A DNA stretch of 64,000 nucleotides from Alphaproteobacteria bacterium (GTDB taxonomy: Bacteria; Pseudomonadota; Alphaproteobacteria; JAPYRI01): positions 6,275-70,274 of the forward strand of contig JAPYRI010000001.1 of NCBI GenBank assembly GCA_029941135.1, in the 5' to 3' direction. The notes below the pieces were generated by a model, which worked only from the letters and a program-made list of their open reading frames with translations, ran no database searches and was not told the DNA's origin. Below, one piece after another: positions 16,862-42,198 of this stretch. Numbering within the stretch: the stretch's first letter is position 1; every line of letters starts with the position of its first letter. The position numbers and the translations under genes were made by a program.

Positions 16862-16935
16862 ATTGAGATTGGAGCGGGTGAAGGGAATCGAACCCTCGTC
16901 GTAAGCTTGGGAAGCTTCTGCTCTGCCATTGAGCT
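16862..16935 (-). tRNA. tRNA-Gly (anticodon CCC).
   Basis: Minus-strand read: GCGGGTGTAGCTCAATGGCAGAGCAGAAGCTTCCCAAGCTTACGACGAGGGTTCGATTCCCTTCACCCGCTCCA. The anticodon loop is TTCCCAA, the T-arm is GGTTCGATTCC, and the CCA is genome-encoded. The cloverleaf was folded by eye. Confidence 0.8.
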
Positions 16936-17145
16936 ACACCCGCCCGATGTCCTCAACAAAAAGTGGGCACTCAGCGTCGTATCTTGCCGCGATTCCGTTG
17001 CCGCTGCCGAACATCATATCGGCTCATATGGTCGCCGCAAGGGAACTATTGCATCTCGCAACAACGTGCTTGGTTTGGCTGGACCTCTATAAAAGAGCCC
17101 AATTTTAGCCGTTTTACTCTCTTGTCTGAATATGTGACAAAATTT

Positions 17146-23182: not shown

Positions 23183-23830
23183 ATGGCGGGGACCGATCTC
23201 ACACAGGACGCCTTCAAGCGCATGGACGAGGGCGAGGACCGGTTGTTTTACGAGGTTCCCCGCTTGGTGACCCACATCGACGAGGGCGCCATTGCGGCAC
23301 TTACCTCTTGTTTTAAAGACCACCTTCCGGCAAGCGGCGACATCTTGGATCTGATGTCCAGTTGCGTGTCCCACTATCCGGACGATGTTGAGTTTGCCTC
23401 GGTGACCGGCCTCGGGATGAACCGGGTCGAGCTGGACGCGAACCCGCGCCTCACCACACGGGTCATTCACGACCTCAACCACGACCCCATCTTGCCTTTC
23501 GATGACGGGACGTTCGATGCTTGCACTCTCAGTGTGTCGGTCCAATATCTGACCCGGCCAAGCGCGGTCTTTACCGAGTTGGCGCGGGTGTTGAAGCCCG
23601 GGGCCCCCTGCATCATCAGTTATTCAAACCGCTGCTTTCCGACCAAGGCGGTGGCCGTTTGGCAGGCGCTCGATGACCACGGACATGGCGAGCTCATCGC
23701 CCAATATTTTGCCGGCAGTAAGGAGTTCGCGCCTGCGCGGGTCCTCGACCTGTCGCCTGCACGCGGGCGCACGCGCGTACACAGAGACCCGCTCTACGTC
23801 GTCGTCGCCGACGCCGCCTTGCCGCTCTGA
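23183..23830 (+). CDS. Class-I methyltransferase-fold protein with a non-canonical motif I (paralog 1).
   Basis: 215 aa. Methyltransf_11-like core (…DILDLMSSCVSHYP…VTGLGMNRVELDANP…DLNHDPILPFDDGTFDACTLSVSVQYLTRP…ARVLKPGAPCIISYSN). The Gly-rich SAM loop is replaced by LMSSCVSH. Confidence 0.55.
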   Translation: MAGTDLTQDAFKRMDEGEDRLFYEVPRLVTHIDEGAIAALTSCFKDHLPASGDILDLMSSCVSHYPDDVEFASVTGLGMNRVELDANPRLTTRVIHDLNHDPILPFDDGTFDACTLSVSVQYLTRPSAVFTELARVLKPGAPCIISYSNRCFPTKAVAVWQALDDHGHGELIAQYFAGSKEFAPARVLDLSPARGRTRVHRDPLYVVVADAALPL

Positions 23831-29649: not shown

Positions 29650-30693
29650 TTAAAACCCGTAGGCTTCGGCCAATGCCGGATCTTTTTGCGCCACCATTTT
29701 CGCCAGATCGACCATCACCTTGGCCTGTTTCCATGTCGCATCATCTTGCATCTTACCATCGATTAGGACGGCGCCGGTGCCATCCGGCATGGCCTCCAGG
29801 ATACGTTTCGCAAACAAAACCTCGTCCACATCGGGGCTAAACACTTTCTTCGCGATAGCGATTTGCGACGGATGCAGGCTCCATGTGCCCAAGCACCCCT
29901 GCAGAAAAGCATTGCGGAATTGGGCTTCACATGCGGCGGGGTCGGAGAAGTCGCCGAAGGGACCATAAAACGCCTTCAACCCATTCGCCATGCAGGCATC
30001 GACCATGCGTCCGACCGTGTAGTGCCACAGGTCCTGCTGATAGAAATTGCGCTCGTCGACTCCTTCACGGGCATCTTCAAGCACCCCATAAAACGGATGT
30101 CCACCGCCCACGCGGGTGGTCTTCATGCCGCGTGAGGCCGCCAAATCGGCGGGGCCCAAACTCATGCCATGCATGCGCGGGCTGGCCGCTGCAATGTCAG
30201 TTACGTTATTTACACCTTGCGCGGTTTCCAATAGGGCATGAATGAGGATCGGCTTCTTGATGTTATGCTTCGCCTCCAATTGGGCGAGCAATTGATCGAG
30301 GTAATAAATGTCCCAAGGACCCTCCACCTTGGGCAGCATCATCACATCGAGCTTGTCACCGATGTTGGCGACAATTTCGTTTATGTCATCCAGCACCCAG
30401 GGGCTGTTCAGGGCATTTATCCGGGTCCACAGGCCAGTTGACCCGAAGTCTGTCGCTTTGGCGACCTCAATAAAACCAGTCCGCGCGGCTTCCTTGGCGT
30501 CGGCTGGAATGGCATCTTCCAGATTGCCCAGTAGCACGTCCACCTGCTCGATCATGTTGGGTACTTTGGCGCAAATTTTTGCGATGTGCGGCGGGAAAAA
30601 GTGAATCATCCGCTCAGGCACAACCGGCAGTTCGCGCACCGGCGCTGGCGCACCGATAGCCAAGGGTTTGTAGAAATTAATTGGCAGTTTCAT
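29650..30693 (-). CDS. mcl: L-malyl-CoA/beta-methylmalyl-CoA lyase (HpcH/HpaI aldolase-citrate lyase family).
   Basis: 347 aa. From memory it is co-linear over the full length with the characterised Chloroflexus/Rhodobacter-type Mcl ([36 protein letters not shown]…[14 protein letters not shown]…[27 protein letters not shown]…[15 protein letters not shown]). Confidence 0.8.
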
Positions 30694-30830
30694 GAAAACT
30701 CCAAAGCGAGATCAGAAGTTTGATATTATGGGCGCCGAAGGAAGTACACGGCTCATGACCCGCCGTCAAATTCGAACACTTGTTTTCTAAGCGCGCTTCA
30801 GGTGACAGTGGCACGGATTGAGGAGGAACT

Positions 30831-31826
30831 TTGACGATGACTTTCAAAACGCCACTGTGTGATCTTTTGGGCATTGCCCATCCCGTGCTACAAGCGGGCA
30901 TGGGCCAAGTGGCGCACGGCGCTTTGGCGGGGGCGGTATCGGCGGCCGGCGGCTTGGGCGTTATTGGCGCCGGCTACATGTCGGCCGACGAATTGCGCGC
31001 CGAAATCGCGGTCGTTCGGGCCCACACCGCGAATCCCTTTGGCGTCGATATTCTGTTTGGTAAGGTTGAGACAGACGACCAAGGGTCGGTGCGCTATGCC
31101 CAGCGTGTTCAGGATCAGATTGCGGTTTCATTGGACGCTAAAGTACCGGTGCTCATCTCCGGGCTTGGCAATCCGCAAGGCATAGTCGACGCCGCACACC
31201 AGCAGGGCATCAAAATCATGTCGGTGGTGGGCAATGTGCGGCAGGCGAAGCGCGTGGTCGATATAGGGGTCGATGTGGTGATTGCATCTGGCGCCGAAGG
31301 CGGCGGCCACGTGGGCCGCGTGGGTACGGTCAGCCTGGTGCCCCAAGTGGTTGATGCCGTTCGGGTGCCAGTGATCGCGGGCGGCGGCCTTGCCGACGGA
31401 AGGGGGTTGGTCGCGTCTCTGGCCATGGGTGCCCAGGGAATATGGCTCGGCACCCGCTTTATCGTCACCAATGAGGCGCGCGGCCACATTAACTACAAAA
31501 ACAAGATCGTCGCCATCGACGAAGAAGGCACCATCATCTCCCGGGGTCACAGCGGCAAACCCTGCCGCCTTATCAGGAACGAATTCACGACGTATTGGGA
31601 AAGCCACGCATCCGACATTAAACCCTACCCCCAGCAGCTGGTCGAAGTGGGCGAACCGGCAACTCTGTTGGGACGGATTGAAGGCGACGCCGACAAAGGT
31701 GTTTTGCCCGCCGGCCAGAGCAGTGGTCTCATAGACAGCGTGAAAGGGGCGGGCCGCGTGGTGACCGACATCATGGCCGAAGCCGAACAGGTTTTATCGG
31801 CCCTGGCTAAATTGGCAGACGCCTAA
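30831..31826 (+). CDS. Nitronate monooxygenase family protein (NMO/2-nitropropane dioxygenase, FMN-dependent).
   Basis: 331 aa. N-terminus LGIAHPVLQAGMGQVAHGALAGAVSAAGGLGVIGAGY and the later GG motif (…VIAGGGLADGRG…). Confidence 0.75.
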   Translation: MTMTFKTPLCDLLGIAHPVLQAGMGQVAHGALAGAVSAAGGLGVIGAGYMSADELRAEIAVVRAHTANPFGVDILFGKVETDDQGSVRYAQRVQDQIAVSLDAKVPVLISGLGNPQGIVDAAHQQGIKIMSVVGNVRQAKRVVDIGVDVVIASGAEGGGHVGRVGTVSLVPQVVDAVRVPVIAGGGLADGRGLVASLAMGAQGIWLGTRFIVTNEARGHINYKNKIVAIDEEGTIISRGHSGKPCRLIRNEFTTYWESHASDIKPYPQQLVEVGEPATLLGRIEGDADKGVLPAGQSSGLIDSVKGAGRVVTDIMAEAEQVLSALAKLADA

Positions 31827-31847
31827 TCTCCCACCGCTTTCTTAGCT

Positions 31848-32726
31848 TCACGCCTCGGGGGCGAGCGCTTCCAAAGCATTCCAGTCGGGCCCCGGCTGAC
31901 CATCGGGGCGGATCGGCTGGATAACCACCTGGCCCGCGCCGCTATCAAAATGAGCCTGAAGCTTCGCCTGTATGTCATCGGTATTGCCCCATATGACCAT
32001 GGCGTCCATCAAACGATCACTGCCGCCATTTTCAAGATCGCTTTCATCGAACCCGAGCCTGAACCAATTTTTAAAATAATTGGGCAGGGGCAAATACGGC
32101 GTCATGGCGTCCCGCGCAGCGGCGCGCGCCTCGTCCCCGTTTGTGGTCAGGCAAATTTTCTGTTCCGTGCAGACAAAATTATCGGCGCCGACTTGCTGGC
32201 GCGCGATCCCCGCATGTTCCGGGGTCACATTGTAGGGCAGCGCGCCCAAAGTGCGTTCGCCGGACAATTTCAGCATATTGGGGCCGAGGGCCGCGAGCAT
32301 AACTTGCTTCACCGCAGGCGCGCCGCCAAACGCCTCCCACGCCTGATCCATGGCGTCTAAGTATGCGCGCATGGTTGAGACAGGTTTTCTGCTGTATTCG
32401 TGCCCACGCACGTCCGCTACCAACGGCGAATGCGAGACCCCCAGTCCGAGAATGAAGCGCTTGTCATAAAGGCCGTTCAAAGTGTTGTGCCCCATCACCG
32501 ACGCCGCAGCATCGCGGGCATAAATATTAGCAATACCGCTGGCGACAATCAGTTTCTCCGAATGCTGGAGCAGATAGCCGCCCAATGCCATGGTTTCGTA
32601 GTTAAACGCCTCCGGATACCACAAAGTCGAGTAACCCAGTTCCTCAACGCGACGGGCCAAATTGGCGAGCTCGTCAGGCGCCATAACATCGGTAAATGTG
32701 AAGACGCCGTATTTTCCGAGTTTCAT
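31848..32726 (-). CDS. LLM-class (luciferase-like) flavin-dependent oxidoreductase, tandem paralog B.
   Basis: 292 aa from the ATG at 32724-32726 (MKLGKYGVFTFTD…). About 55% identical to the upstream paralog over the full length. Confidence 0.7.
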   Translation of the reverse strand: MKLGKYGVFTFTDVMAPDELANLARRVEELGYSTLWYPEAFNYETMALGGYLLQHSEKLIVASGIANIYARDAAASVMGHNTLNGLYDKRFILGLGVSHSPLVADVRGHEYSRKPVSTMRAYLDAMDQAWEAFGGAPAVKQVMLAALGPNMLKLSGERTLGALPYNVTPEHAGIARQQVGADNFVCTEQKICLTTNGDEARAAARDAMTPYLPLPNYFKNWFRLGFDESDLENGGSDRLMDAMVIWGNTDDIQAKLQAHFDSGAGQVVIQPIRPDGQPGPDWNALEALAPEA

Positions 32727-32758
32727 AAATATTCTCCCAAGGTCTATAAAAACTACCC

Positions 32759-33637
32759 TTATCCAGGCGCAAGGGCTTCCAGTGCGTTCCAATCAGGGAC
32801 CCCTGCTCCGTCCGGACGGAGCGATTGAATACCGACGTGAGTGGCGCCGGCATCCAGGTGAGCTTTCAGGCGGGCAAGAATGTCATCCTCCGTGCCCCAG
32901 GCAACCATGGCGTCCATCAGCCGGTCACTGCCACCGTTGCTCCAGTCTTCTTCGTTGAACCCAACACTCGACCAAATATCGTGGTAGCGCGGAAACTCCA
33001 AATAAAAGCTGAGAGTCCGACGCGCAGTCGCCCGGGCTTCGGCGGGATTGGTGGTGAGACAAACGTTCTGCACGGCCACCAGCGTTGAATCGGCTCCAAT
33101 TCTTTCTCGCGCGCGCGCCGTCAATTCAGGTGTATTGTTGTAGGGTATCGGCCCGAGGGTGCTCTCAGCCGCCAGTTTCTGCATGCCTGGGCCCAATGCC
33201 GCCAGCATCAATCTCTTTTCCCCATTGAATGGGCCGCCCAACACCTCCCAGGCGGCATCCATGTCGTCTAAATATTTACGCATGGTCGAAAGCGGCTTTT
33301 CGAACACATGCCCCCCGCCGCGAATATCGAGAATGCCAGGGTGGGACACGCCAAGGCCCAAAACGAAACGGTCACCATAAAGCTTGTTAAGAGAGTTATA
33401 GCCCTGGGCTGCCGCCATAGGATCACGGGCAAAGATGTTGGCAATACCGTTGGCGATAATCAAACTCTCGGTTTGGCTCAGTAAAAAGGCGCCCTGAGCC
33501 ATGGCCTCGTAGTCGAAGACCTCCGGATACCACAAAGTTTTGTAGCCGAGTTGTTCGGTGCGCGGGCCGAGCTCGGCCATTTGCGCCGGGCTGAGGCCGT
33601 CGGTAAACACGACCACGCCGAGTTCGCCAAAATCCAT
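32759..33637 (-). CDS. LLM-class (luciferase-like) flavin-dependent oxidoreductase, tandem paralog A.
   Basis: 292 aa from the ATG at 33635-33637 (MDFGELGVVVFTD…). It starts 67 nt downstream of the paaE stop on the same strand. Confidence 0.7.
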   Translation of the reverse strand: MDFGELGVVVFTDGLSPAQMAELGPRTEQLGYKTLWYPEVFDYEAMAQGAFLLSQTESLIIANGIANIFARDPMAAAQGYNSLNKLYGDRFVLGLGVSHPGILDIRGGGHVFEKPLSTMRKYLDDMDAAWEVLGGPFNGEKRLMLAALGPGMQKLAAESTLGPIPYNNTPELTARARERIGADSTLVAVQNVCLTTNPAEARATARRTLSFYLEFPRYHDIWSSVGFNEEDWSNGGSDRLMDAMVAWGTEDDILARLKAHLDAGATHVGIQSLRPDGAGVPDWNALEALAPG

Positions 33638-33704
33638 GAAGTTCCTCCCATGTAAGCGCCGCAGCATAACCGGTTGAGAGGCCGGCGAGTAGACCCTACG
33701 GAGA

Positions 33705-34787
33705 TTACATTTCGTCGAAGTCCAATTCGACGGTATCGGTCAATGGCCGTGACTGGCACGTGAGCACAAAACCCGCGTCCAGCTCCCATGGCTCAAGGCT
33801 ATAATTGACCGGCATGTCAACCTTACCTTTGGTCACCTTAGCCCGGCACGAGGTGCACATCCCGCCCATGCAGGAATAGGGGATATCGACACCTTCAGCG
33901 ATGGCGCTATCGAGGATATTGCCGTCGGCCACCGGCACGGCAAACTCGGATCGCACCCCATCGACCACGACAGATACGCACGCGTCATCCCCGGCAGTTT
34001 CGGCTTTGGCTTTCGGCTTTGGCGAGAGAGTGGGCACGTCGCCGTCATCAGTCGCGAACCGTTCGAAATGAATGCACTCATCCGCGACACCTAAATTCTT
34101 CAAAGCTTTTGTCACATCAGAGATCATGGAGCCAGGACCGCACACAAACACGCCGTCAAGCGCGGAGGCCGGACATGCGGTTGCCATCAGGCCGGCAACT
34201 TTCGTAGCATCAATGCGACCATTCAGCAGATCCGATTCCTGATCTTCGCCGCTAAGAATATGAAAAATACTGAGCCGCCCCATATGACGGTTCTTAAGAT
34301 CGTCGATCCGGTCGCGGAAAATCACTGACGCCGTATTGCGGTTGCCATAGAACAAAAACACCTGAGCATTCGACTCGGAGTCCAACAGTGTCGCAATAAT
34401 TGAAATCACCGGCGTAATGCCGCTGCCGGCGGCAAACGCCGCATATGTCTTGCGCGTAGCTGGTTCTGGGATCACCCGAAACTTGCCGGTCGGAGTCATG
34501 ACTTGAACCCGACTGCCAACCCGAAAATCTTCGTGGGCATAGGTCGAATATGCGCCGTCGGGCACTTTTTTGATGGCGACGCGCAGTTCACCATCGCCAG
34601 CGCCGCTGCAGATAGAGTAGCACCGGCGCACATCTTCGCCATCAATATCGGCGCGCAAGGTCAGGTGCTGGCCAGCATCAAACTTGTACGCGTCGGCCAG
34701 ATCGTCCGGCACCTCAAAAGCGATTGAAACCGCGTCGTCGGTCTCAAGCCGCACGTCGGCAATCGTCAGTTCATGAAAGCGGGCCAT
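33705..34787 (-). CDS. paaE: 1,2-phenylacetyl-CoA epoxidase reductase subunit PaaE (ferredoxin-NAD(P)H reductase with a C-terminal plant-type 2Fe-2S domain).
   Basis: 360 aa. FAD/NAD-binding FNR-like N-domain, then a C-terminal 2Fe-2S ferredoxin (…YSCMGGMCTSCRAKV…). Confidence 0.85.
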   Translation of the reverse strand: MARFHELTIADVRLETDDAVSIAFEVPDDLADAYKFDAGQHLTLRADIDGEDVRRCYSICSGAGDGELRVAIKKVPDGAYSTYAHEDFRVGSRVQVMTPTGKFRVIPEPATRKTYAAFAAGSGITPVISIIATLLDSESNAQVFLFYGNRNTASVIFRDRIDDLKNRHMGRLSIFHILSGEDQESDLLNGRIDATKVAGLMATACPASALDGVFVCGPGSMISDVTKALKNLGVADECIHFERFATDDGDVPTLSPKPKAKAETAGDDACVSVVVDGVRSEFAVPVADGNILDSAIAEGVDIPYSCMGGMCTSCRAKVTKGKVDMPVNYSLEPWELDAGFVLTCQSRPLTDTVELDFDEM

Positions 34788-34790
34788 CAA

Positions 34791-35267
34791 TCAAATGCAC
34801 TTAAAGTGATCGAAGGGTTCGCGGCAGGTAATGCAGCGATAGAGCGCCTTGCAGGCGGTTGAGCCGAACTCACTCAGGCACTCGGTCTCAGATGAACCGC
34901 ATTGCGGGCACCGCACTTCTCCGGGTGGGGAAATGCCGTAATCTTCAAGTTTGCGACGGCCATCCGCGCTCATCCAATCCGTGGTCCAGGCGGGCGACAC
35001 CACCGTTTCAACCACCGCGGAATTAAAGCCATGATCGCACAAGGCGGTCAGTATATCGGCCTTGATGGTGTCCATGGCCGGACAGCCGGTGTACGTGGGC
35101 GTGATAGACACTATCGCCCGGTCGCCATCCATCCGCACGTCCCGGGCAATCCCCAGATCGACGATGGTCAATACTGGGATTTCCGGATCCACCACGGTCT
35201 CCAATACCTGCCATATTTTGGCTGATACCTCGTTCTGCGCTTGCGCGGGGGCAGTTTCGGTCACCAT
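34791..35267 (-). CDS. paaD: 1,2-phenylacetyl-CoA epoxidase subunit PaaD (DUF59/SufT-like).
   Basis: 158 aa. DUF59 core (VWQVLETVVDPEIPVLTIVDLGIARDV) and a C-terminal four-Cys segment (CPQCGSSETE…CITCREPFDHFKC). Confidence 0.85.
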   Translation of the reverse strand: MVTETAPAQAQNEVSAKIWQVLETVVDPEIPVLTIVDLGIARDVRMDGDRAIVSITPTYTGCPAMDTIKADILTALCDHGFNSAVVETVVSPAWTTDWMSADGRRKLEDYGISPPGEVRCPQCGSSETECLSEFGSTACKALYRCITCREPFDHFKCI

Positions 35268-36043
35268 GTTGCGTCCGGATGGGTACGCGGCAGGATTTGC
35301 ATGTCGGCCAGCATATGGCGCAATCCTTCGCCGTGATCGCCGGTGATACCGCCGATGGCAAACTCATTGTCATCAGGTCGGATTAAGGTTGCTTCAGCTA
35401 GGACGTCAACAACCCGTTGGTCCCATAAGGGTTTCAATGCCGCGCGATCCACGCCAATGCCCGCCGCTACAACAACTTGATCGATGTCATCCACTGCAAA
35501 CATTTCGCCCGTGTAGCGCCACAATTCATCAAGCGCGGTTTGCGTCCGCCGCTGGCTTTTGGCGGTGCCATCGCCAAGCCGCACGACCCAGCCCGCGCTA
35601 AACCGGAAGTGATAGGTGATTTCTTTGACCACCTTAGTGGCAATCGCCGCCAGTCGAGCGTCGCTCGAATGTTGCAATTGAGTATAAAATTCCAGGTTGA
35701 AGGCATCATATAAAAACTGCCGCACGATGGTCACGGCAAAGTCGCCGTTCGGTTGCTCGACCAGCAGCAAATTCCTAAATCCCTCCGCGTCGCGCAAATA
35801 GGCAAGCGCATCTTCGTCTTGACCTGTGCCTTCCACTTCGCCCGCGTAGGTGAGCAGTAATCGCGCCTGGCCGATCAAGTCGAGACCCACATTGAGGAGG
35901 GCGATCTCAACTTCCAGTTCGGGGCCATGGGCGCACCACTCTCCCAGCCGGTGGCCGAGCACCAGGCTGTTGTCACCCAGACGCAAGATGTATTCGAACA
36001 GTGGGTCAGGGTCTGCAGTTAGCGCAATGTCAGTTGAAGCCAT
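35261..36043 (-). CDS. paaC: 1,2-phenylacetyl-CoA epoxidase structural subunit PaaC.
   Basis: 260 aa, ferritin-like fold. Gene order places it between paaB and paaD. Confidence 0.85.
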   Translation of the reverse strand: MASTDIALTADPDPLFEYILRLGDNSLVLGHRLGEWCAHGPELEVEIALLNVGLDLIGQARLLLTYAGEVEGTGQDEDALAYLRDAEGFRNLLLVEQPNGDFAVTIVRQFLYDAFNLEFYTQLQHSSDARLAAIATKVVKEITYHFRFSAGWVVRLGDGTAKSQRRTQTALDELWRYTGEMFAVDDIDQVVVAAGIGVDRAALKPLWDQRVVDVLAEATLIRPDDNEFAIGGITGDHGEGLRHMLADMQILPRTHPDATW

Positions 36044-36060
36044 GATCGGTTCATCCGCCC

Positions 36061-36351
36061 TTACATATTCTCGACGCCGTCCGGCACTTTATAAAAGGTG
36101 GGGTGCCGATAAATTTTATCCGCCGTGGGCTCAAAAAACGCGGCTTTATCCGCCGGGTCCGACGCCGTGATCTCGACCGAAGGCACAACCCAAATGCTGG
36201 TTCCTTCAGCCCGCCGGGTATAAACGTCGCGCGCATTCTCAAGCGCCATTTTGGAGTCGGCCGCATGCAGACTGCCCGCATGCTTATGGCTGAGACCATT
36301 GCGACCGCGGATAAATACTTCATACAGCGGCCAATCAGATTGCAGCATCAT
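36061..36351 (-). CDS. paaB: 1,2-phenylacetyl-CoA epoxidase subunit PaaB.
   Basis: 96 aa (…WPLYEVFIRGRNGLSHKHAGSLHAADSKMALENARDVYTRR…). This family is highly conserved. Confidence 0.9.
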   Translation of the reverse strand: MMLQSDWPLYEVFIRGRNGLSHKHAGSLHAADSKMALENARDVYTRRAEGTSIWVVPSVEITASDPADKAAFFEPTADKIYRHPTFYKVPDGVENM

Positions 36352-36402
36352 TTGATCCTTCCCAATAAGGCCCTATTCGGCTGCTTCGCGGCTGCGTTGG
36401 CG

Positions 36403-37368
36403 CTATTTCTCCGCATGCGCGGCAGCAGCTTCTCGCACCCAGGCGCCATTTTCATGCGCTGCCGTACGGATTTCCATCCGCTCCACATTGCACGGGCCAT
36501 CGCCGTTCAACACGCGCTTAAATTCTTCCCAATCAATCTCGCCATAATCGTAGTGACCTTCGCTCGCATTCCACTTGAGATCAGGGTCCGGCAATTTCAG
36601 TCCGATGCGGTCACCCTGAGGCACCGTTGCATCAATAAATTTCTGCCGGAGTTCGTCGTTGGTGAAGCGCTTGATCTTCCATTGCATGGATTTGGACGAA
36701 TGGGCCGAGTCTTTATCCGAAGGCCCAAACATCATCAAAGCCGGCCACCACCATCGGTCGAGCGCGTCTTGCGCCATTTGATGCTGTTCCGGTGTCCCGT
36801 TGGCCATATCCGAAATGAGCTCGTAACCCTGACGCTGATGAAAACTCTCTTCCTTGCAGACTCGGATCATCGCACGGGCGTACGGCCCATATGAACACCG
36901 GCACAGGGGGATCTGGTTCATGATCGCCGCGCCATCAACCAACCAGCCTACGGCGCCTAAATCGGCCCAATTCAAAGTCGGATAATTAAAAATGCTTGAG
37001 TACTTCGCTTTGCCACTCAGCAATTGGTCAACTAAATCACTGCGCGCAACACCAAGTGTTTCCGCCGCGCTATACAGATAAAGGCCGTGACCGGCCTCGT
37101 CTTGGATTTTCGCCATCAACACGCCCTTGCGTTTAAGCGTAGGGGCACGGCTCAGCCAGGCGCCTTCGGGCTGCATGCCGATCACTTCCGAGTGGGCGTG
37201 CTGGGATATTTGCCGGACTAAGGTTTTCCGGTAAGCCGCCGGCATCCAGTCGTTGGGCTCAATTTTTTCGTCCCGGTCGATGCGGGCTTGAAAACGGACG
37301 AGCGCTTCCCGATCATCCTGGCTGAGATCGCTGTCGGTAGGCGTTCCGTTTAAGCTCTGGGTGTACAT
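36403..37368 (-). CDS. paaA: 1,2-phenylacetyl-CoA epoxidase catalytic subunit PaaA.
   Basis: 321 aa, di-iron ferritin-like oxygenase (…[51 protein letters not shown]…). Confidence 0.9.
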
Positions 37369-37422
37369 CCGTTCTCCCTAGCCAATTTGTCGTGGCAGTT
37401 ACCGAGACCTAATGTCCAATCA

Positions 37423-37467
37423 ATATATCACATAAATACAACAAATCGATAATTTTATGTAATATAT
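37423..37467. promoter_or_regulatory. AT-rich 14-bp imperfect inverted repeat in the paaA promoter region, a candidate PaaX operator.
   Basis: ATATATCACATAAA (37423-36), a 17-nt spacer, then TTTATGTAATATAT (37454-67). One mismatch between arms. It lies 55-100 nt upstream of the paaA start and just downstream of the paaX stop. Confidence 0.4.
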
Positions 37468-37472
37468 CATAT

Positions 37473-38411
37473 TCATTGCGTCAAACCACCAAATCTTTGC
37501 CAAAATGCCCCTTCAGGCGGCGGCAATGAACTGTCCCCGCGCTCGAAATGGTCAGATATCCATTGTTCGGAGAGCGTAACCACTTGCCCATAAAAGTGGC
37601 GGGCCAGACGCCGGGCTTGGGTTCCTGCCCAGTCTTGCGGCAGCAGTTCAGCCGGTAATAATGGATCGCGCAATATGATGCGGCGATAATCGTGGATGAG
37701 CATGATCCGCGCCAGCATACACTCCCAAGCGGACAGTTCAGCGCCATTGTTTAAAGCCCGGCCAAGTGCCCCAAATCTCGCGACAAAATCGTCGTAGTCA
37801 TGGGCGAGATCTTGCAACGCCCAACAGTCGTCGACCAAACGAGACAGCGATGTGGCCGATGCCGCCGGATCACCGCCACCACGAATGATGATCGGCCGAG
37901 ATGCGGTTGGCGACACCTTGGATAAAACCTCCTCCAGCGCGGCACCATCCGGATCCGGGTGAATGAGCACGCCGGACGCGAGTGACCCAAAACCGATCCA
38001 ACCCAATTCTTTGCGCAATTGGTCCCGCCATGCGCTCGCACCACCCGGCGTAATGACCAGGCAAAACGCGCCTGACCATGCGGGCGGCGCACTTGAGTAA
38101 ATACGCCGAGTCGCCGCATCAAAGCGCCCGCGTCCAGAACGGGTCAGAGTGTAAAAGCTTTTGCGTCCCCGCCGCTCGGCCACAAACCATTTGTCATCAG
38201 TGAGGCGCGACATGGCGGTGCGCGCCTGACTATCGTTAATGCCAAACGCATGCAAAAGCGGCAACAGGCTGCCGAGCCACAGCGTGCCGCCCCGGGGCGC
38301 GACCGCGTCGCCAAAGACCGTGGTGATCAATGAGCCCGCGCGACTCGGTTTACGGCTGGCAAATTCGGCGGTCAGGTTGGTGACCCATTCATTGGGGAGC
38401 GGTTCCGGCAT
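37473..38411 (-). CDS. paaX: Phenylacetic acid degradation operon negative regulator PaaX.
   Basis: 312 aa. N-terminal winged-helix region typical of PaaX (…SLITTVFGDAVAPRGGTLWLGSLLPLLHAFGINDSQARTAMSRLTDDKWFVAERRGRKSFYTLTRSG…). Confidence 0.85.
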   Translation of the reverse strand: MPEPLPNEWVTNLTAEFASRKPSRAGSLITTVFGDAVAPRGGTLWLGSLLPLLHAFGINDSQARTAMSRLTDDKWFVAERRGRKSFYTLTRSGRGRFDAATRRIYSSAPPAWSGAFCLVITPGGASAWRDQLRKELGWIGFGSLASGVLIHPDPDGAALEEVLSKVSPTASRPIIIRGGGDPAASATSLSRLVDDCWALQDLAHDYDDFVARFGALGRALNNGAELSAWECMLARIMLIHDYRRIILRDPLLPAELLPQDWAGTQARRLARHFYGQVVTLSEQWISDHFERGDSSLPPPEGAFWQRFGGLTQ

Positions 38412-38550: not shown

Positions 38551-39669
38551 ATGCATGTCGGATACAGCGCGTTTTTTCAAAATCTCACCGGGGACCTGAC
38601 CGACCATCAGGTCTATCAAAACGCTATTGAGCTCGCCGATATGGCTGAGCCTCTAGGTTTCGAGTCGATCTGGGCGGCCGAGCACCATTTTACCGAATAC
38701 ACCATGTGCCCGAACGTCACTCAGTTCCTCACCTACATGGCGGGGCGCACCAAAACCGTAAAATTGGGCGCCATGGCTTATATCGTGCCGTGGCACGAAC
38801 CGATCCGGCTGGCAGAAGAAATTTGTGTGTTGGACAACGTATCAAACGGACGCGCAATTCTGGGCTTTGGTCGCGGCTTGGGCCGGGTCGAATTCGATGC
38901 CTTCCGCCTCGAGATGGGGGAGAGCCGGGAGCGGTTCGTTGAATTTACCGACGCCATCCTGACCGCCCTCGAGACCGGCTACATCGAATATGACGGCAAG
39001 CATTACCAGCAGCCCAGAGCCGGCATCCGACCCGCCCCCTTCAAGTCTTTCCGTGACCGCAGTTATGCCGCCGCCGTGTCCCCCGAATCAGCGCGCATCA
39101 TGGCCCGCCTCGGCATCGGCATCCTCGTCATTCCACAGAAACCCTGGGAAATTACCAAGCAAGAAGTGGCCATGTACCGGGAGATTTTTCGCGAAGAAAA
39201 CAATGGCGCCGAAGCGCCCAAGCCGATCATCGCCGCATTTGTCGCCTGCCACGAAGACGAAAGCGTGGCCAAAGAAATGCACGAGAAATATATCCGGCGC
39301 TACAGCCGCTCGGCGCTTGAACATTACGAATTTGCCAATGCTGAATTGGCCAACATCAAGGGTTACGAGTACTACGGCGGGATCGCCAAAAACATCGAAA
39401 AACACGGCGTCGATGCCTTCGTCAATTTCCTCGCCGACCTGCAGATCTGGGGCACCCCCGATCAGGTGTTCGAGCAGATGATGGAACATCAAAGTATGAT
39501 CGACAGCGGCGCCTCGGTCGGTATGTTCAGTTATGGCGGCATGCCCCACGACATGGCAACCGGCAATCTGAAACTGTTCGCGGAAAAAGTCCTGCCACGC
39601 CTAAAAGCGCAAGACGTGGGCGAAACCATTGGCGGCGCGGGCACGCCTCTGACAGTCGCCGCCGAGTAG
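38551..39669 (+). CDS. LLM-class flavin-dependent oxidoreductase (luciferase-like monooxygenase, bacterial luciferase/SsuD-like subgroup).
   Basis: 372 aa. Starts MHVGYSAFFQNL…GFESIWAAEHHFTEYTMCPNV…, a characteristic LLM N-terminus. It is divergent from paaX. Confidence 0.7.
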   Translation: MHVGYSAFFQNLTGDLTDHQVYQNAIELADMAEPLGFESIWAAEHHFTEYTMCPNVTQFLTYMAGRTKTVKLGAMAYIVPWHEPIRLAEEICVLDNVSNGRAILGFGRGLGRVEFDAFRLEMGESRERFVEFTDAILTALETGYIEYDGKHYQQPRAGIRPAPFKSFRDRSYAAAVSPESARIMARLGIGILVIPQKPWEITKQEVAMYREIFREENNGAEAPKPIIAAFVACHEDESVAKEMHEKYIRRYSRSALEHYEFANAELANIKGYEYYGGIAKNIEKHGVDAFVNFLADLQIWGTPDQVFEQMMEHQSMIDSGASVGMFSYGGMPHDMATGNLKLFAEKVLPRLKAQDVGETIGGAGTPLTVAAE

Positions 39670-39788
39670 ATTTTCTCGCACTTTTAAGGTCCTTCCATAT
39701 GGGAGGCCCTTTTTTGTGGGTATATTGCGTTTAGAAGTTGGTTGTGGGCGCCGGTGATCGCAGTTTGGTGAAGTTTGTCGTCTAGCCG

Positions 39789-40814
39789 TTGCAAAACCAC
39801 CGCCAAAACATACCATCGGGCAGCATTCGAGTAATCTACCCTTTTGACCATGTTTTTTGTATGAACATACACCCGCCAATAAAGTTTCTGGACCCGCGAA
39901 CGACTGTTGACGGCAGTCCTCGCGCGACAGTCAAGCTCATGCATCTGGAAACCTTGTGGTTCAATACTGGCACGCTCTGCAATCTTGAATGCAAAGATTG
40001 CTATATCGAGTCGAGCCCCAAGAATGATCGCTTGGTTTACCTGACCGCCAACGAAATCTCGGTTTTTTTGGATGAGATCGAACGCGATCATTTGGGCACA
40101 CGGGAAATTGGCTTTACCGGCGGCGAGCCTTTCATGAACCCCGATATCGTCGCCATGATGACAGATTGCCTCGAGCGCGGGTTCGAAGTGTTGGTGTTGA
40201 CCAACGGCATGCGGCCGATGATGAAGCTCGATACTCAATTGTTGGCGCTGAACTGCCGATTCGGTGCCAAACTTAGGTTGCGTGTGTCCCTCGATCACTA
40301 CAGCAAATCGCGCCACGAAGAGTTGCGCGGTCCACACTCGTGGGCGCCGACCATTACCGGCTTGACGTGGTTGTCAGATCAAGGATTCCGTGTCCACATG
40401 GCCGGCCGTACGGTTTGGGGCGATGACGAAGCCACAATTCGCAATGGGTTTGCCCATCTATTTTCGCAGATGAACCTCAACATCGACCCTCACAGCCCAA
40501 CACAATTGATATTGTTTCCGGAAATGGACGAAGCTGCGCCGGTGGCCGAAATAACCACCTCCTGCTGGTCTCTCCTCAGCGTCGATCCAAATTCTCTCAT
40601 GTGCGCAAGCTCACGCATGGTTGTGAAACACAAGGGCGCCGACCGGCCTACCATACAGGCCTGCACCCTGCTGCCCTACGACCCGCGCTTTGCGCTCGGA
40701 TCCTCTTTGCGCGCCGCCACTTCCGACCCGGTTGCCCTTAATCACCCCCATTGCTCCAAATTTTGCGTGCTTGGCGGCGGCGCCTGCAGCGTTTCAGAGG
40801 TCTCCTCGACTTGA
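39789..40814 (+). CDS. Radical SAM/Cys-rich-domain protein (TIGR04167/ArsS-like family).
   Basis: CxxxCxxC (TGTLCNLECKDCY) in the first 70 residues. The C-terminal roughly 100 aa holds six further Cys (…CWSLL…CASS…ACTLL…HCSKFCVLGGGACS). The stop codon is TGA. The likely start is the ATG at 39861 (MNIHPP…) or 39939 (MHLETL…). Confidence 0.6.
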   Translation: MQNHRQNIPSGSIRVIYPFDHVFCMNIHPPIKFLDPRTTVDGSPRATVKLMHLETLWFNTGTLCNLECKDCYIESSPKNDRLVYLTANEISVFLDEIERDHLGTREIGFTGGEPFMNPDIVAMMTDCLERGFEVLVLTNGMRPMMKLDTQLLALNCRFGAKLRLRVSLDHYSKSRHEELRGPHSWAPTITGLTWLSDQGFRVHMAGRTVWGDDEATIRNGFAHLFSQMNLNIDPHSPTQLILFPEMDEAAPVAEITTSCWSLLSVDPNSLMCASSRMVVKHKGADRPTIQACTLLPYDPRFALGSSLRAATSDPVALNHPHCSKFCVLGGGACSVSEVSST

Positions 40815-40934
40815 CCAGGAACAAAGGAGGGTATACGAATTAAATCTCGTGGTGATTTGAGCCGACCGGCTTGCGGCCACGTAAAATAAACCGCTAAAAG
40901 GTCGAGATGGCACCCAGCCCCCCCCGACCGCCCC

Positions 40935-40989
40935 GGTCGATTTTTTTGTGGCCGGGTATAATTTGGCCGACCAAAAGGGAGCCAATGCC
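40935..40989 (+). promoter_or_regulatory. Candidate SAM-II (metA-element) riboswitch in the metZ leader.
   Basis: CGAUUUUUUUG–UGGCC-GGGUAUAAUUU-GGCC–GACCAAAAGGGAGCC directly precedes the metZ ATG. A 5′ U-tract, a short hairpin, then a 3′ A-tract plus SD is the SAM-II pseudoknot/triplex architecture. SAM-II is known upstream of metA/metX/metZ in alphaproteobacteria. No covariance model was run. Confidence 0.4.
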
Positions 40990-42198
40990 ATGTCGCCCTC
41001 AAATGAGAGCAACAACAAGACCGCAATGCGGCCGCGCACGGCCCTGGTCCGCGGCGGTCTTCACCGATCGCCGTTGGGGGAAACCTCGGAAGCGATATTT
41101 CTCACTTCGGGCTTTGTTTACGACGACCCGGAAGTGGCCGCGGCGCGCTTTAGTGGCGATGCGGATGGCTATACTTATTCCAGATTGCGCAACCCAACAG
41201 TCGCCATGTTCGAAGAACGCATGGCTCTGATCGGTGGCACTGAGATCGCCCGCGCGACCGCGAGCGGCATGGCTGCCGTAGCGGCATCTTTCCTGTCGCA
41301 AGTGAAAGTGGGAGATCATGTGGTTGCGGGTGAAGCTTTATTTGGCTCTATCCGGGTGATCCTGGAAGATGTCCTGCCCCGATTCGGCGTTGACCTCACC
41401 ATGGTCAATAATACGGACCTCGAGGCTTGGAAACAGGCGGTCCAGCCGGAAACCACATTGTTTTTTTTGGAATCCCCTTCCAATCCCACATTAGGGATCA
41501 CGGACCTCCAGGCCGTGGCCGATATTGCCCATAATGCCGGGGCAAAAATCATTTTGGATAATGTGTTCGCCACCCCTGTTCTGCAACGTCCGGTCGAATT
41601 TGACATCGATATCACGATTTATTCGGCAACCAAGCACATTGACGGCCAAGGCCGCTGTTTGGGTGGCTGCATATTATCCGATCAAAAGTTTCTGGATGAT
41701 TTTCTTGATCCCTATTTGCGTCACACCGGACCTGCTCTCAGTCCCTTTAACGCCTGGGTGCTGTTGAAAGGAATTGAAACGCTGGAACTTAGAGTTGAGG
41801 CCGCCTGCCAGAATGCGCAGCATGTTGCGGATTTTCTCGCAGAACAGCCAGGGGTCACAAAGGTATTATACCCGGGGCGGCAAGATCATCCCCAGCACAC
41901 GCTTGCCATGCGCCAAATGAGCGCCGGCGGGACACTCGTTTCATTCGAGTTACCCGGGGGTCGCGAGCGTGCGTTTGCGTTTTTAAAGGCGCTCAACTTG
42001 ATCGATATTTCCAACAACCTGGGCGATACTAAGAGTCTGATCACCCATCCGGCCAGCACCACCCATCAACGCCTGTCACCCGAAGATCGCGCCGCCCAGG
42101 GTATTGGCGAAGGTCTGGTTCGCCTGTCAGTCGGATTGGAAGATGCGGATGATCTGACTGACGATATTGGCCAAGCGCTAGCGGTGGCGGCGCTCTAA
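40990..42198 (+). CDS. metZ: O-succinylhomoserine sulfhydrylase (Cys/Met-metabolism PLP-dependent enzyme).
   Basis: 402 aa from the ATG at 40990 (SD GGGAG 8 nt upstream). The ORF-track start at 40948 is a GTG inside the putative riboswitch. The PLP-lysine region is …IYSATKHIDGQGRCLGG…. Confidence 0.8.
   Translation: MSPSNESNNKTAMRPRTALVRGGLHRSPLGETSEAIFLTSGFVYDDPEVAAARFSGDADGYTYSRLRNPTVAMFEERMALIGGTEIARATASGMAAVAASFLSQVKVGDHVVAGEALFGSIRVILEDVLPRFGVDLTMVNNTDLEAWKQAVQPETTLFFLESPSNPTLGITDLQAVADIAHNAGAKIILDNVFATPVLQRPVEFDIDITIYSATKHIDGQGRCLGGCILSDQKFLDDFLDPYLRHTGPALSPFNAWVLLKGIETLELRVEAACQNAQHVADFLAEQPGVTKVLYPGRQDHPQHTLAMRQMSAGGTLVSFELPGGRERAFAFLKALNLIDISNNLGDTKSLITHPASTTHQRLSPEDRAAQGIGEGLVRLSVGLEDADDLTDDIGQALAVAAL

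Follow-up and report, generated by a model that had tools for sequence, protein, structure and literature searches.

A radical-SAM protein family that may take the place of ArsS in bacterial organoarsenical gene clusters

Introduction

ArsS belongs to the radical S-adenosylmethionine (SAM) enzymes and adds the 5'-deoxyadenosyl radical to dimethylarsenite, forming 5'-deoxy-5'-dimethylarsinoyl-adenosine in a redox-neutral reaction (bioRxiv 10.64898/2026.04.29.721666; PMC13598754). The selenocysteine (Sec) motif of ArsS is 'GxxU' (PMC13188914). In ArsL, a radical-SAM enzyme of arsinothricin biosynthesis (NF040542), the C-terminal Cys tail binds As(III) and not an Fe-S cluster (bioRxiv 10.1101/2024.02.01.577332). 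In this study, a radical-SAM gene of an Alphaproteobacteria bacterium was compared with these systems. The gene lies in a 64,000-nucleotide stretch of assembly GCA_029941135.1 (contig JAPYRI010000001.1, positions 6,275 to 70,274, forward strand); this whole stretch is called the window, and coordinates refer to it. The best explanation of the results is that the gene is a standalone, intact member of a large unnamed radical-SAM family that, in Proteobacteria and further phyla, takes the place of ArsS in organoarsenical gene clusters of the arsenosugar type.

The Gene and Its Protein

The open reading frame (ORF) was first described in a reading of the letters without database searches (the sequence-only reading). 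It exists as described at 39789..40814 on the plus strand, with 341 aa from a TTG codon and a TGA stop at 40812-40814. The same reading extended the element to 40889, which did not hold: 40815-40889 is noncoding and overlaps the probable metZ promoter and a SAM-II aptamer. Judged from homologs and gene calls, translation almost certainly starts at ATG 39861, which gives 317 aa. This form is covered to 96-99% by homologs that are 311-325 aa long and 57-74% identical, and independent gene calling produced it in two metagenome-assembled genomes (MAGs) at NCBI, GCA_029935955.1 and GCA_029936055.1. Another annotation, P0242, is also the 317-aa form. In the public annotation P0001 (291 aa), the gene begins at ATG 39939, cutting 26 residues that include conserved N-terminal positions. 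A start at ATG 39939 was ruled out because the conserved residues K8, F9, D11, P12, T15, G18, and R21 are encoded upstream of it. The parts of the gene are listed below.

39861..40814, plus strand: coding sequence of the radical-SAM protein, 317 aa, from ATG 39861 to TGA 40812-40814 (homolog coverage and independent gene calls)
39978..40001, plus strand: CX3CX2C motif (C40, C44, and C47), radical-SAM [4Fe-4S] cluster site (PF04055, 58.5 bits)
40563..40787, plus strand: C-terminal Cys-rich domain, whose six invariant Cys are C235, C248, C268, C298, C302, and C309

The motif LCNLECKDCY with its CX3CX2C spacing was present as first described; C64/C68/C71 of the TTG form correspond to C40/C44/C47 of the 317-aa form. 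The six further Cys reported near the C-terminus were also found, within the last ~85 residues. None of the nine Cys varies among 110 homologs, and in the window gene each is encoded by TGC. The invariance of all six C-terminal Cys (6/6) indicates that they are not a chance feature. The C-terminal domain closes with the motif H-C-x3-C-x6-C-S, and the end of the protein reads ...HPHCSKFCVLGGGACSVSEVSST. The AlphaFold2 model of the protein had a pLDDT of 90.6. Its predicted fold resembles a partial TIM barrel of the twitch/SPASM type, with a beta-hairpin (strands 251-255 and 264-266) placed between C248 and C268. The GC content was uniform over the region, with no sign of recent transfer.

The best 120 database matches each scored at least 438 bits, with 59-74% identity and a length of ~316 aa. 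They came from Alpha- and Gammaproteobacteria, Gemmatimonadota, Latescibacterota, and others, and were named 'radical SAM protein' at most (PGAP naming). Relatives are encoded in at least 600 species-representative genomes, including those of the cultured Nitrococcus mobilis Nb-231, Ruegeria sp. 6PALISEP08, and Parasphingorhabdus sp. DH2-15. An exhaustive hidden Markov model (HMM) search of 1.84 billion representatives gave 416 clusters at 50% identity (E<=1e-30). A copy on a Roseomonas haemaphysalidis plasmid is 56% identical and is likewise named just 'radical SAM protein' by PGAP. In a neighbour-joining tree, copies linked to ars-type genes and copies linked to metZ were interleaved (locus L066 was sister to L070 plus L072, and L027 to L042), which points to one orthologous family with variable genome position. 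A Marinobacter plasmid match (H2; 31.5% identity, in two pieces, unannotated) was dropped as an apparent pseudogene whose surroundings tell little.

Comparison with ArsS and Other Radical-SAM Enzymes

The sequence-only reading had placed the protein in an ArsS/TIGR04167-like radical-SAM/Cys-rich class. The enzyme class stood, as the protein is a radical-SAM protein with a conserved six-Cys C-terminal domain. Membership in TIGR04167 did not: PF12345 was absent, and the window protein reached 60.3 bits where the cutoff is 300. The match was limited to the core (protein residues 50-203, model positions 4-151 of 303). The other family members tested also failed TIGR04167, which ranked second among NCBIfam models for the window protein and for every one of them. 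The best NCBIfam model for the core was the Rv1681 family (NF049973); the window protein scored 93.6 bits and 11 other members 50-165 bits. These scores are far under the cutoff of 380, and the alignment was confined to the core (model positions 73-238 of 326). The only Pfam matches of the window protein were Radical_SAM and Fer4_12. For the C-terminal 117 aa, no Pfam model matched even at E<=10, DUF3641/PF12345 included, whereas DUF3641/PF12345 was found in 120/120 listed homologs of a PGAP-annotated ArsS.

The family was also compared with ArsS by hhalign, with a family profile of 110 sequences (A3) and an ArsS profile of 43 sequences (A5). The radical-SAM cores, each with its CX3CX2C motif, aligned with a probability of 98.1% (E = 7.7e-14, residues 24-209, 24% identity). 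The isolated C-terminal domains did no better than the reversed control (E = 0.056 over 7 columns), and the whole-profile comparison also showed no C-terminal homology. In a MAFFT alignment, C235, C248, H297-C298, C302 (offset by one), and G306..C309-S310 lined up with Cys of ArsS, with no statistical support. The family pattern is C-x12-C ... H-C-x3-C-x6-C-S and that of ArsS is C-x13/14-C ... H-C-x2-C-x7-C-S; a shared C-terminal Cys skeleton is suggestive only. Both proteins have a size of ~320 aa. The family differs from ArsS in an insertion of ~19 residues, which is predicted to form the beta-hairpin and carries the sixth invariant Cys, C268. The bridging protein P0388 aligned to positions 2-300 of 303 of TIGR04167, at only 60 bits. 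On these comparisons, the family appears to be a distant sister of ArsS, and it is not ArsS by any membership criterion tested.

ArsL shares with the family the CX3CX2C radical-SAM motif, an ArsM partner, and a Cys-rich C-terminal tail. By analogy, the HC-x3-C-x6-CS tail of the family may bind As(III) as the ArsL tail does. Unlike ArsL, the window protein has no RCCLKC motif, NF040542 was absent from its 25 best NCBIfam matches, and the partners of the family point to nucleoside or ribose chemistry and not to 3-amino-3-carboxypropyl (ACP) transfer.

The search against SPASM/twitch models gave no match to PF13186 and 45.9 bits for NF033640 (cutoff 170). The twitch/SPASM enzymes BlsE, SkfB, SuiB, anSME, and MoaA are only 13-19% identical to the family and differ in Cys spacing and genomic context. 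A PDB sequence search returned only weak core matches, BlsE and MoaA. No known housekeeping radical-SAM model was near its cutoff in the NCBIfam scan. PF12710 matches in the family were rejected as sub-threshold (13.5 bits against 27). The 455-aa protein P0003, with a precomputed 'HAD' match, had been considered as an informative fusion; it instead has a partial internal duplication of the radical-SAM core with two matched stretches, possibly through tandem duplication of a part or through an artefact of assembly.

Gene Neighbourhood and Gene Fusions

Neighbouring genes were clustered over 86 family loci (numbered with L). Two tblastn censuses covered 86 loci and 84 non-redundant loci with a partner distance of <=7 kb, and representatives were checked against NCBIfam. 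The censuses used different query sets, hence the ranges in the partner counts. At least one ArsS-type partner was found in 24/86 loci in the first census and in 27/84 in the second, while less than 1 locus is expected by chance for roughly single-copy genes. The partners are listed below.

TIGR04283, 'arsenosugar biosynthesis glycosyltransferase': 16-20 loci; representative 221 bits, cutoff 182
TIGR04282: 14-16 loci; representative 133.9 bits, cutoff 134
ArsM-like methyltransferase: 6-7 loci; the top five matches of the representative were all ArsM-type models
MerA-like FAD oxidoreductase: 9 loci
VTT/TVP38 membrane protein: 9 loci
S-methyl-5'-thioadenosine phosphorylase (MTAP): 5 loci, including L010, L041, and L042; 479 bits, cutoff 437
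Metallophosphoesterase: 8 loci; representative without an NCBIfam match

The same accessory set surrounds two true ArsS genes annotated by PGAP. The Pseudanabaena locus has VTT, 'mercuric reductase', ArsM, VTT, and ArsS, and the Thiodictyon locus has a family 2 glycosyltransferase (GT2), a desaturase, ArsS, and TIGR04282. ArsM, TIGR04282, a GT2/TIGR04283-type transferase, a MerA-like FAD oxidoreductase, and a VTT membrane protein are accessory genes common to both, and the Roseomonas locus carries the same accessory set as true ArsS loci. No true ArsS was present in any family locus of the set examined, so the family gene occupies the ArsS slot. A point of difference from ArsS is the metallophosphoesterase partner, which matched no NCBIfam model. 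It was always close to the radical-SAM gene on the same strand, and directly adjacent to it in 7/8 loci.

Partner domains were also found fused to the radical-SAM domain in the exhaustive HMM search. Metallophosphoesterase-radical-SAM fusions occurred in P0244, P0245, and P0273, DUF2064-radical-SAM fusions in P0246 and P0316, and a fusion to HD_3/YfbR-like (an HD 5'-nucleotidase-like domain) in P0247. P0244-P0247 were the four top-scoring representatives, and P0273 and P0316 were also strong. P0388 is a radical-SAM-ArsM fusion identical to RefSeq WP_423302845.1 of Deferribacter thermophilus; the best model of its methyltransferase part was NF008823 (193 bits). Its identity with the window protein is 33% over residues 10-310, C-terminal domain included (E = 7e-47). 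Most fusions were seen again in independent assemblies. As read from these sequences, the fusions provide independent support for the link to ArsS-type partners.

Several other observations were made at these loci. The metallophosphoesterase genes lie in L020, L024, L030, L042, L048, L055, L086, and L089 (e.g., L055:7954-8775); their products are ~275 aa and 53-60% identical among loci. On Roseomonas haemaphysalidis plasmid p546-1 (L089), a second radical-SAM gene (L089:6601-7980, 459 aa) shares 4 nt with the beginning of the family gene and is weakly TrsS/Tes-like (100 bits, cutoff 490). This cluster also contains TIGR04282, DUF547, a phosphonate-type ABC transporter, and the metallophosphoesterase; no NCBIfam model matched its metallophosphoesterase and DUF547 proteins. 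Two ars-type clusters of sphingomonads have, between ArsM and the GT2-type transferase, an SDR/thioester-reductase-like gene (L070:3326-4363 and L072:1526-2542) that may encode one more enzyme of the pathway. In many loci of the metZ/apaG type (L016, L023, L027, L050, L053, L055, and L066; e.g., L053:6734-6804, minus), the opposite strand carries a tRNA gene just upstream of the radical-SAM gene, and such a position could be an integration hotspot explaining the variable upstream content. The recurrent neighbour clusters 1, 9, 27, 28, and 47 from crude ORF calling were rejected as antisense artefacts of high-GC DNA. Literature searches found no functional studies of TIGR04282, TIGR04283, DUF2064, or Rv1681.

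Stop Codon and SAM-II Riboswitch

The features at the 3' end of the gene are listed below.

40812..40814, plus strand: ordinary TGA stop inside a conserved TTGACC hexamer, from comparative data
40811..40837, plus strand: putative metZ promoter, TTGACC, 15-nt spacer, TATACG
40839..40917, plus strand: SAM-II aptamer (SAM_alpha, RF00521) in the metZ leader, 72.8 bits against a gathering threshold of 36, full length (1-79 of 79)
40925..40946, plus strand: terminator-like hairpin and T7 run past the aptamer, CGACCGCCCCGGTCG then ATTTTTTTGT

The sequence-only reading had raised UGA recoding, with a read-through of about 24 residues. The frame itself was confirmed, as 24 codons lead to TAA 40887-40889; a coding extension was not, as the SAM-II aptamer lies in that frame. 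Family proteins end 2-3 residues past the last Cys in 62/86 loci, and the tail of the window protein is 8 aa. TGA was the commonest stop in the family (47/86 loci). No in-frame stop occurred at a conserved Cys in 86 loci (0/86), and no Sec forms were seen, in contrast with ArsS. The Sec of the ArsS 'GxxU' motif corresponds to C309, which is TGC here. A SECIS-like hairpin, for which the sequence-only reading had proposed a search, was not found within 49 nt past the UGA. These 49 nt folded no better than shuffled sequence (dG -5.5 kcal/mol, z = +0.8), and the sole stem, which begins 36 nt downstream, is P1 of the SAM-II riboswitch. No tRNA-Sec was found in the 64-kb window. The only tRNA of the window is tRNA-Gly(CCC) at 16870-16943 (minus strand). 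A partner small peptide had been mentioned as well; no conserved small ORF was found nearby, and the downstream 'peptide' frame is the riboswitch. From these comparisons, UGA recoding is considered refuted and the TGA a plain stop.

The riboswitch block is nearly identical in L005, the closest relative, whose proteins are only ~74% identical to those of the window. The radical-SAM gene of L005 ends at a TAA upstream of this block. A SAM-II aptamer was found upstream of metZ in 9 loci, and in 8/9 it lies directly between the radical-SAM gene (or its adjacent metallophosphoesterase gene) and metZ. The aptamer is conserved in L005, L015, L023, L034, L050, L053, L055, and L066. The hairpin at 40925..40946 is probably the expression platform of the riboswitch. 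Both hexamer regions of the TTGACC/TATACG pair are conserved against L005 and the spacer has diverged; tentatively, the pair is a metZ promoter overlapping the stop codon of the radical-SAM gene. The consensus promoter scan did not flag 40811..40837, its spacer being 15 nt. For annotation, the case teaches that a conserved stretch past a stop codon can pass for recoded coding sequence; here it is a riboswitch.

Local Neighbours in the Window

The neighbours named in the sequence-only reading were recovered, and are listed with the hairpin between the first of them and the radical-SAM gene.

38551..39669, plus strand: LLM-class (luciferase-like) oxidoreductase, upstream neighbour, not functionally linked (PF00296, 235.6 bits)
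39691..39716, plus strand: terminator-like hairpin and T-run after the LLM gene, CCTTCCATATGGGAGG then CCCTTTTTTG
40990..42198, plus strand: metZ (O-succinylhomoserine sulfhydrylase), separately regulated, 402 aa from ATG 40990 in NCBI MAGs (TIGR01325, 550 bits, cutoff 510)

Analysis of the neighbourhood of orthologs showed that the adjacency to the LLM gene is lineage-specific, being found only in the closest relative (L005/L006). In relatives at 66-70% identity, groES-groEL lies upstream in its place, followed downstream by the same block metZ-apaG-folE-trkH-hslO-argF-argD. This long shared block indicates that the adjacency to metZ reflects clade-level housekeeping synteny. The functional link to LLM and metZ that had been suggested was thus not borne out, given also the hairpin after the LLM gene and the riboswitch of metZ. 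With this hairpin before it and the probable promoter, riboswitch, and terminator-like platform of metZ after it, the radical-SAM gene appears to be its own transcription unit.

As stated in the sequence-only reading, no arsM is adjacent, and tblastn found no organoarsenical pathway partner within the 64-kb window. The only arsM-related match was a 38-residue methyltransferase motif at 23492-23605, matching the SAM-binding motif of an ArsM-cluster methyltransferase (E = 1.6e-5); it probably belongs to an unrelated class I methyltransferase gene. The region ~29861-38411 (minus strand), mapped from L091, contains a phenylacetate-CoA oxygenase cluster (paaABCDE), paaX, two more LLM genes, an NMO-type gene, and an HpcH/HpaI-type gene. 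Compared with the groES-groEL relatives, this paa block and the adjacent LLM gene look like a lineage-specific insertion.

Proposed Function and Alternatives

It is proposed, with a probability of roughly 0.55, that the family performs the ArsS-equivalent step, the adenosylation of a methylated arsenical. The N-terminal [4Fe-4S] cluster would reductively cleave SAM to the 5'-deoxyadenosyl radical. The radical would attack the trivalent As of a methylated arsenical supplied by ArsM, as in ArsS, to give a 5'-deoxy-5'-arsinoyl-adenosine. The C-terminal Cys may hold auxiliary Fe-S cluster(s) through the hairpin flanked by C248 and C268, or may bind the metalloid through the HC-x3-C-x6-CS tail. Adenine or phosphate would be removed by MTAP, the HD protein, or the metallophosphoesterase, and the ribosyl unit would be moved by DUF2064-type and GT2-type transferases. 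These nucleoside- and ribose-processing partners fit such later steps and an adenosylated product. A broader claim is made tentatively and at less than even odds: besides ArsS, the family may form a second and separate lineage of radical-SAM adenosyltransferases that make C-As bonds, one that lacks Sec and is widespread in largely aerobic heterotrophic Proteobacteria and other phyla, with a six-Cys domain that binds the metalloid as the ArsL tail does and is more than an auxiliary Fe-S site.

Several points weigh against adenosylation of an arsenical. The function is assigned through guilt by association in genome sequences. About two thirds of the family loci have no ars-type partner within 7 kb, the window has none in 64 kb, and ArsM is close in only 6-7/84 loci. 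The C-terminal domain has no detectable DUF3641 homology, so substrate binding could differ from that of ArsS. The radical-SAM-ArsM fusion sits in a divergent relative (33% identity) and not in a close ortholog. The housekeeping synteny block in the lineage of the window would also fit a constitutive role that has nothing to do with arsenic. The neighbour-joining tree is star-like and was not bootstrapped. The 'arsenosugar biosynthesis' roles of TIGR04282 and TIGR04283 in NCBIfam were presumably themselves derived from co-occurrence with ArsS.

The same pathway neighbourhood could serve another chemistry or substrate: ACP transfer releasing S-methyl-5'-thioadenosine (MTA), as in ArsL; H abstraction from a nucleotide or sugar; or Se, Sb, or P in place of As. 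This is rather unlikely but has to be reckoned with. The C-terminal domain is unlike that of ArsS, the transferases and the phosphoesterase are commoner neighbours than ArsM, and MTAP would also fit the salvage of MTA from ACP transfer. A phosphonate-type ABC transporter is present in the Roseomonas cluster and a PHO4 transporter in L001, and ArsL is a precedent for a canonical CX3CX2C enzyme making an ACP radical. However, the RCCLKC tail and a close NF040542 match are missing, true ArsS is surrounded by the same partner set, and MTAP, the HD 5'-nucleotidase-like domain, the metallophosphoesterase, and the nucleotidyl-/glycosyl-transferase-like partners suit an adenosylated product more than one resembling an amino acid. 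A housekeeping role outside arsenic chemistry (e.g., in cofactor or nucleotide modification), with secondary ars-type clustering, is improbable. It would account for the ~60% identity across phyla and the compact sequence space (the 416 representatives), for the block groESL/rSAM/metZ/apaG/folE/trkH/hslO/argF/argD in the clade of the window, and for the lack of an informative neighbour in most loci. It does not agree with the excess of ArsS-type partners over chance in the second census, nor with the six in-family fusions, whose three partner domain types all belong to the ArsS-type partner set, and the known housekeeping models all scored far from their cutoffs.

The idea that the gene works as a unit with the LLM oxidoreductase and metZ, perhaps in sulfur or selenium amino-acid chemistry, is largely refuted and now very unlikely. 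The three genes are adjacent on the same strand, metZ is the adjacent downstream gene in ~10/84 family loci, and methionine is a product of radical-SAM turnover. The hairpin after the LLM gene separates the first two genes, though, and metZ has its own SAM-II riboswitch here and in every metZ-adjacent locus checked, with the terminator platform as well. In L055 and L086, a phosphoesterase gene lies between the radical-SAM gene and the riboswitch; the LLM gene gives way to groESL in the relatives at 66-70% identity, and the synteny reaches the functionally unrelated apaG, folE, trkH, hslO, and argFD. A twitch/SPASM-type maturase of a peptide that is synthesized ribosomally and modified after translation (RiPP), acting on a small partner peptide, has hardly any probability left. 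The closest solved folds include the maturases SkfB, SuiB, ChlB, and CteB, and the C-terminal domain is Cys-rich; but PF13186 was not matched, the NF033640 match covered the core only, the neighbours and fusions are small-molecule enzymes next to which no conserved small ORF was found, and 60% identity across phyla is atypical of RiPP maturases. A true ArsS/TIGR04167 selenoprotein, or a product extended by read-through or Sec recoding, is refuted by the comparative data. The UGA lies shortly past the Cys-rich tail, and the Sec of ArsS is near the C-terminus; against this stand the TIGR04167 and PF12345 results, homolog C-termini that are shorter and not longer, the TGC codon of C309 and the intact Cys codons of the 86 loci, the missing hairpin and tRNA-Sec, the aptamer that the read-through frame crosses, and the TAA of L005 upstream of the block. 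Adenosylation of a methylated arsenical, in the place of ArsS, is the preferred assignment for the family.

Significance

The synthesis of arsenosugars and related organoarsenicals is now attributed mainly to ArsM plus ArsS. The current HMMs TIGR04167 and PF12345 miss the present family entirely. The fusions and neighbours nominate MTAP, the HD domain, the metallophosphoesterase, DUF2064, and GT2 as enzymes for the steps after adenosylation. Should the ArsS step indeed be carried out by this family, adenosyl- or ribosyl-arsenicals could be expected from many heterotrophs of sea and soil as candidate producers, for example Ruegeria, sphingomonads, Reyranella, Nitrococcus, and Latescibacterota. 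This would matter for arsenic cycling and, as the two HMMs miss the family, for the reading of arsM/arsS gene surveys. If the family is in fact a second, Sec-free lineage, arsenosugar-type organoarsenical synthesis would not be confined to phototrophs and anaerobes.

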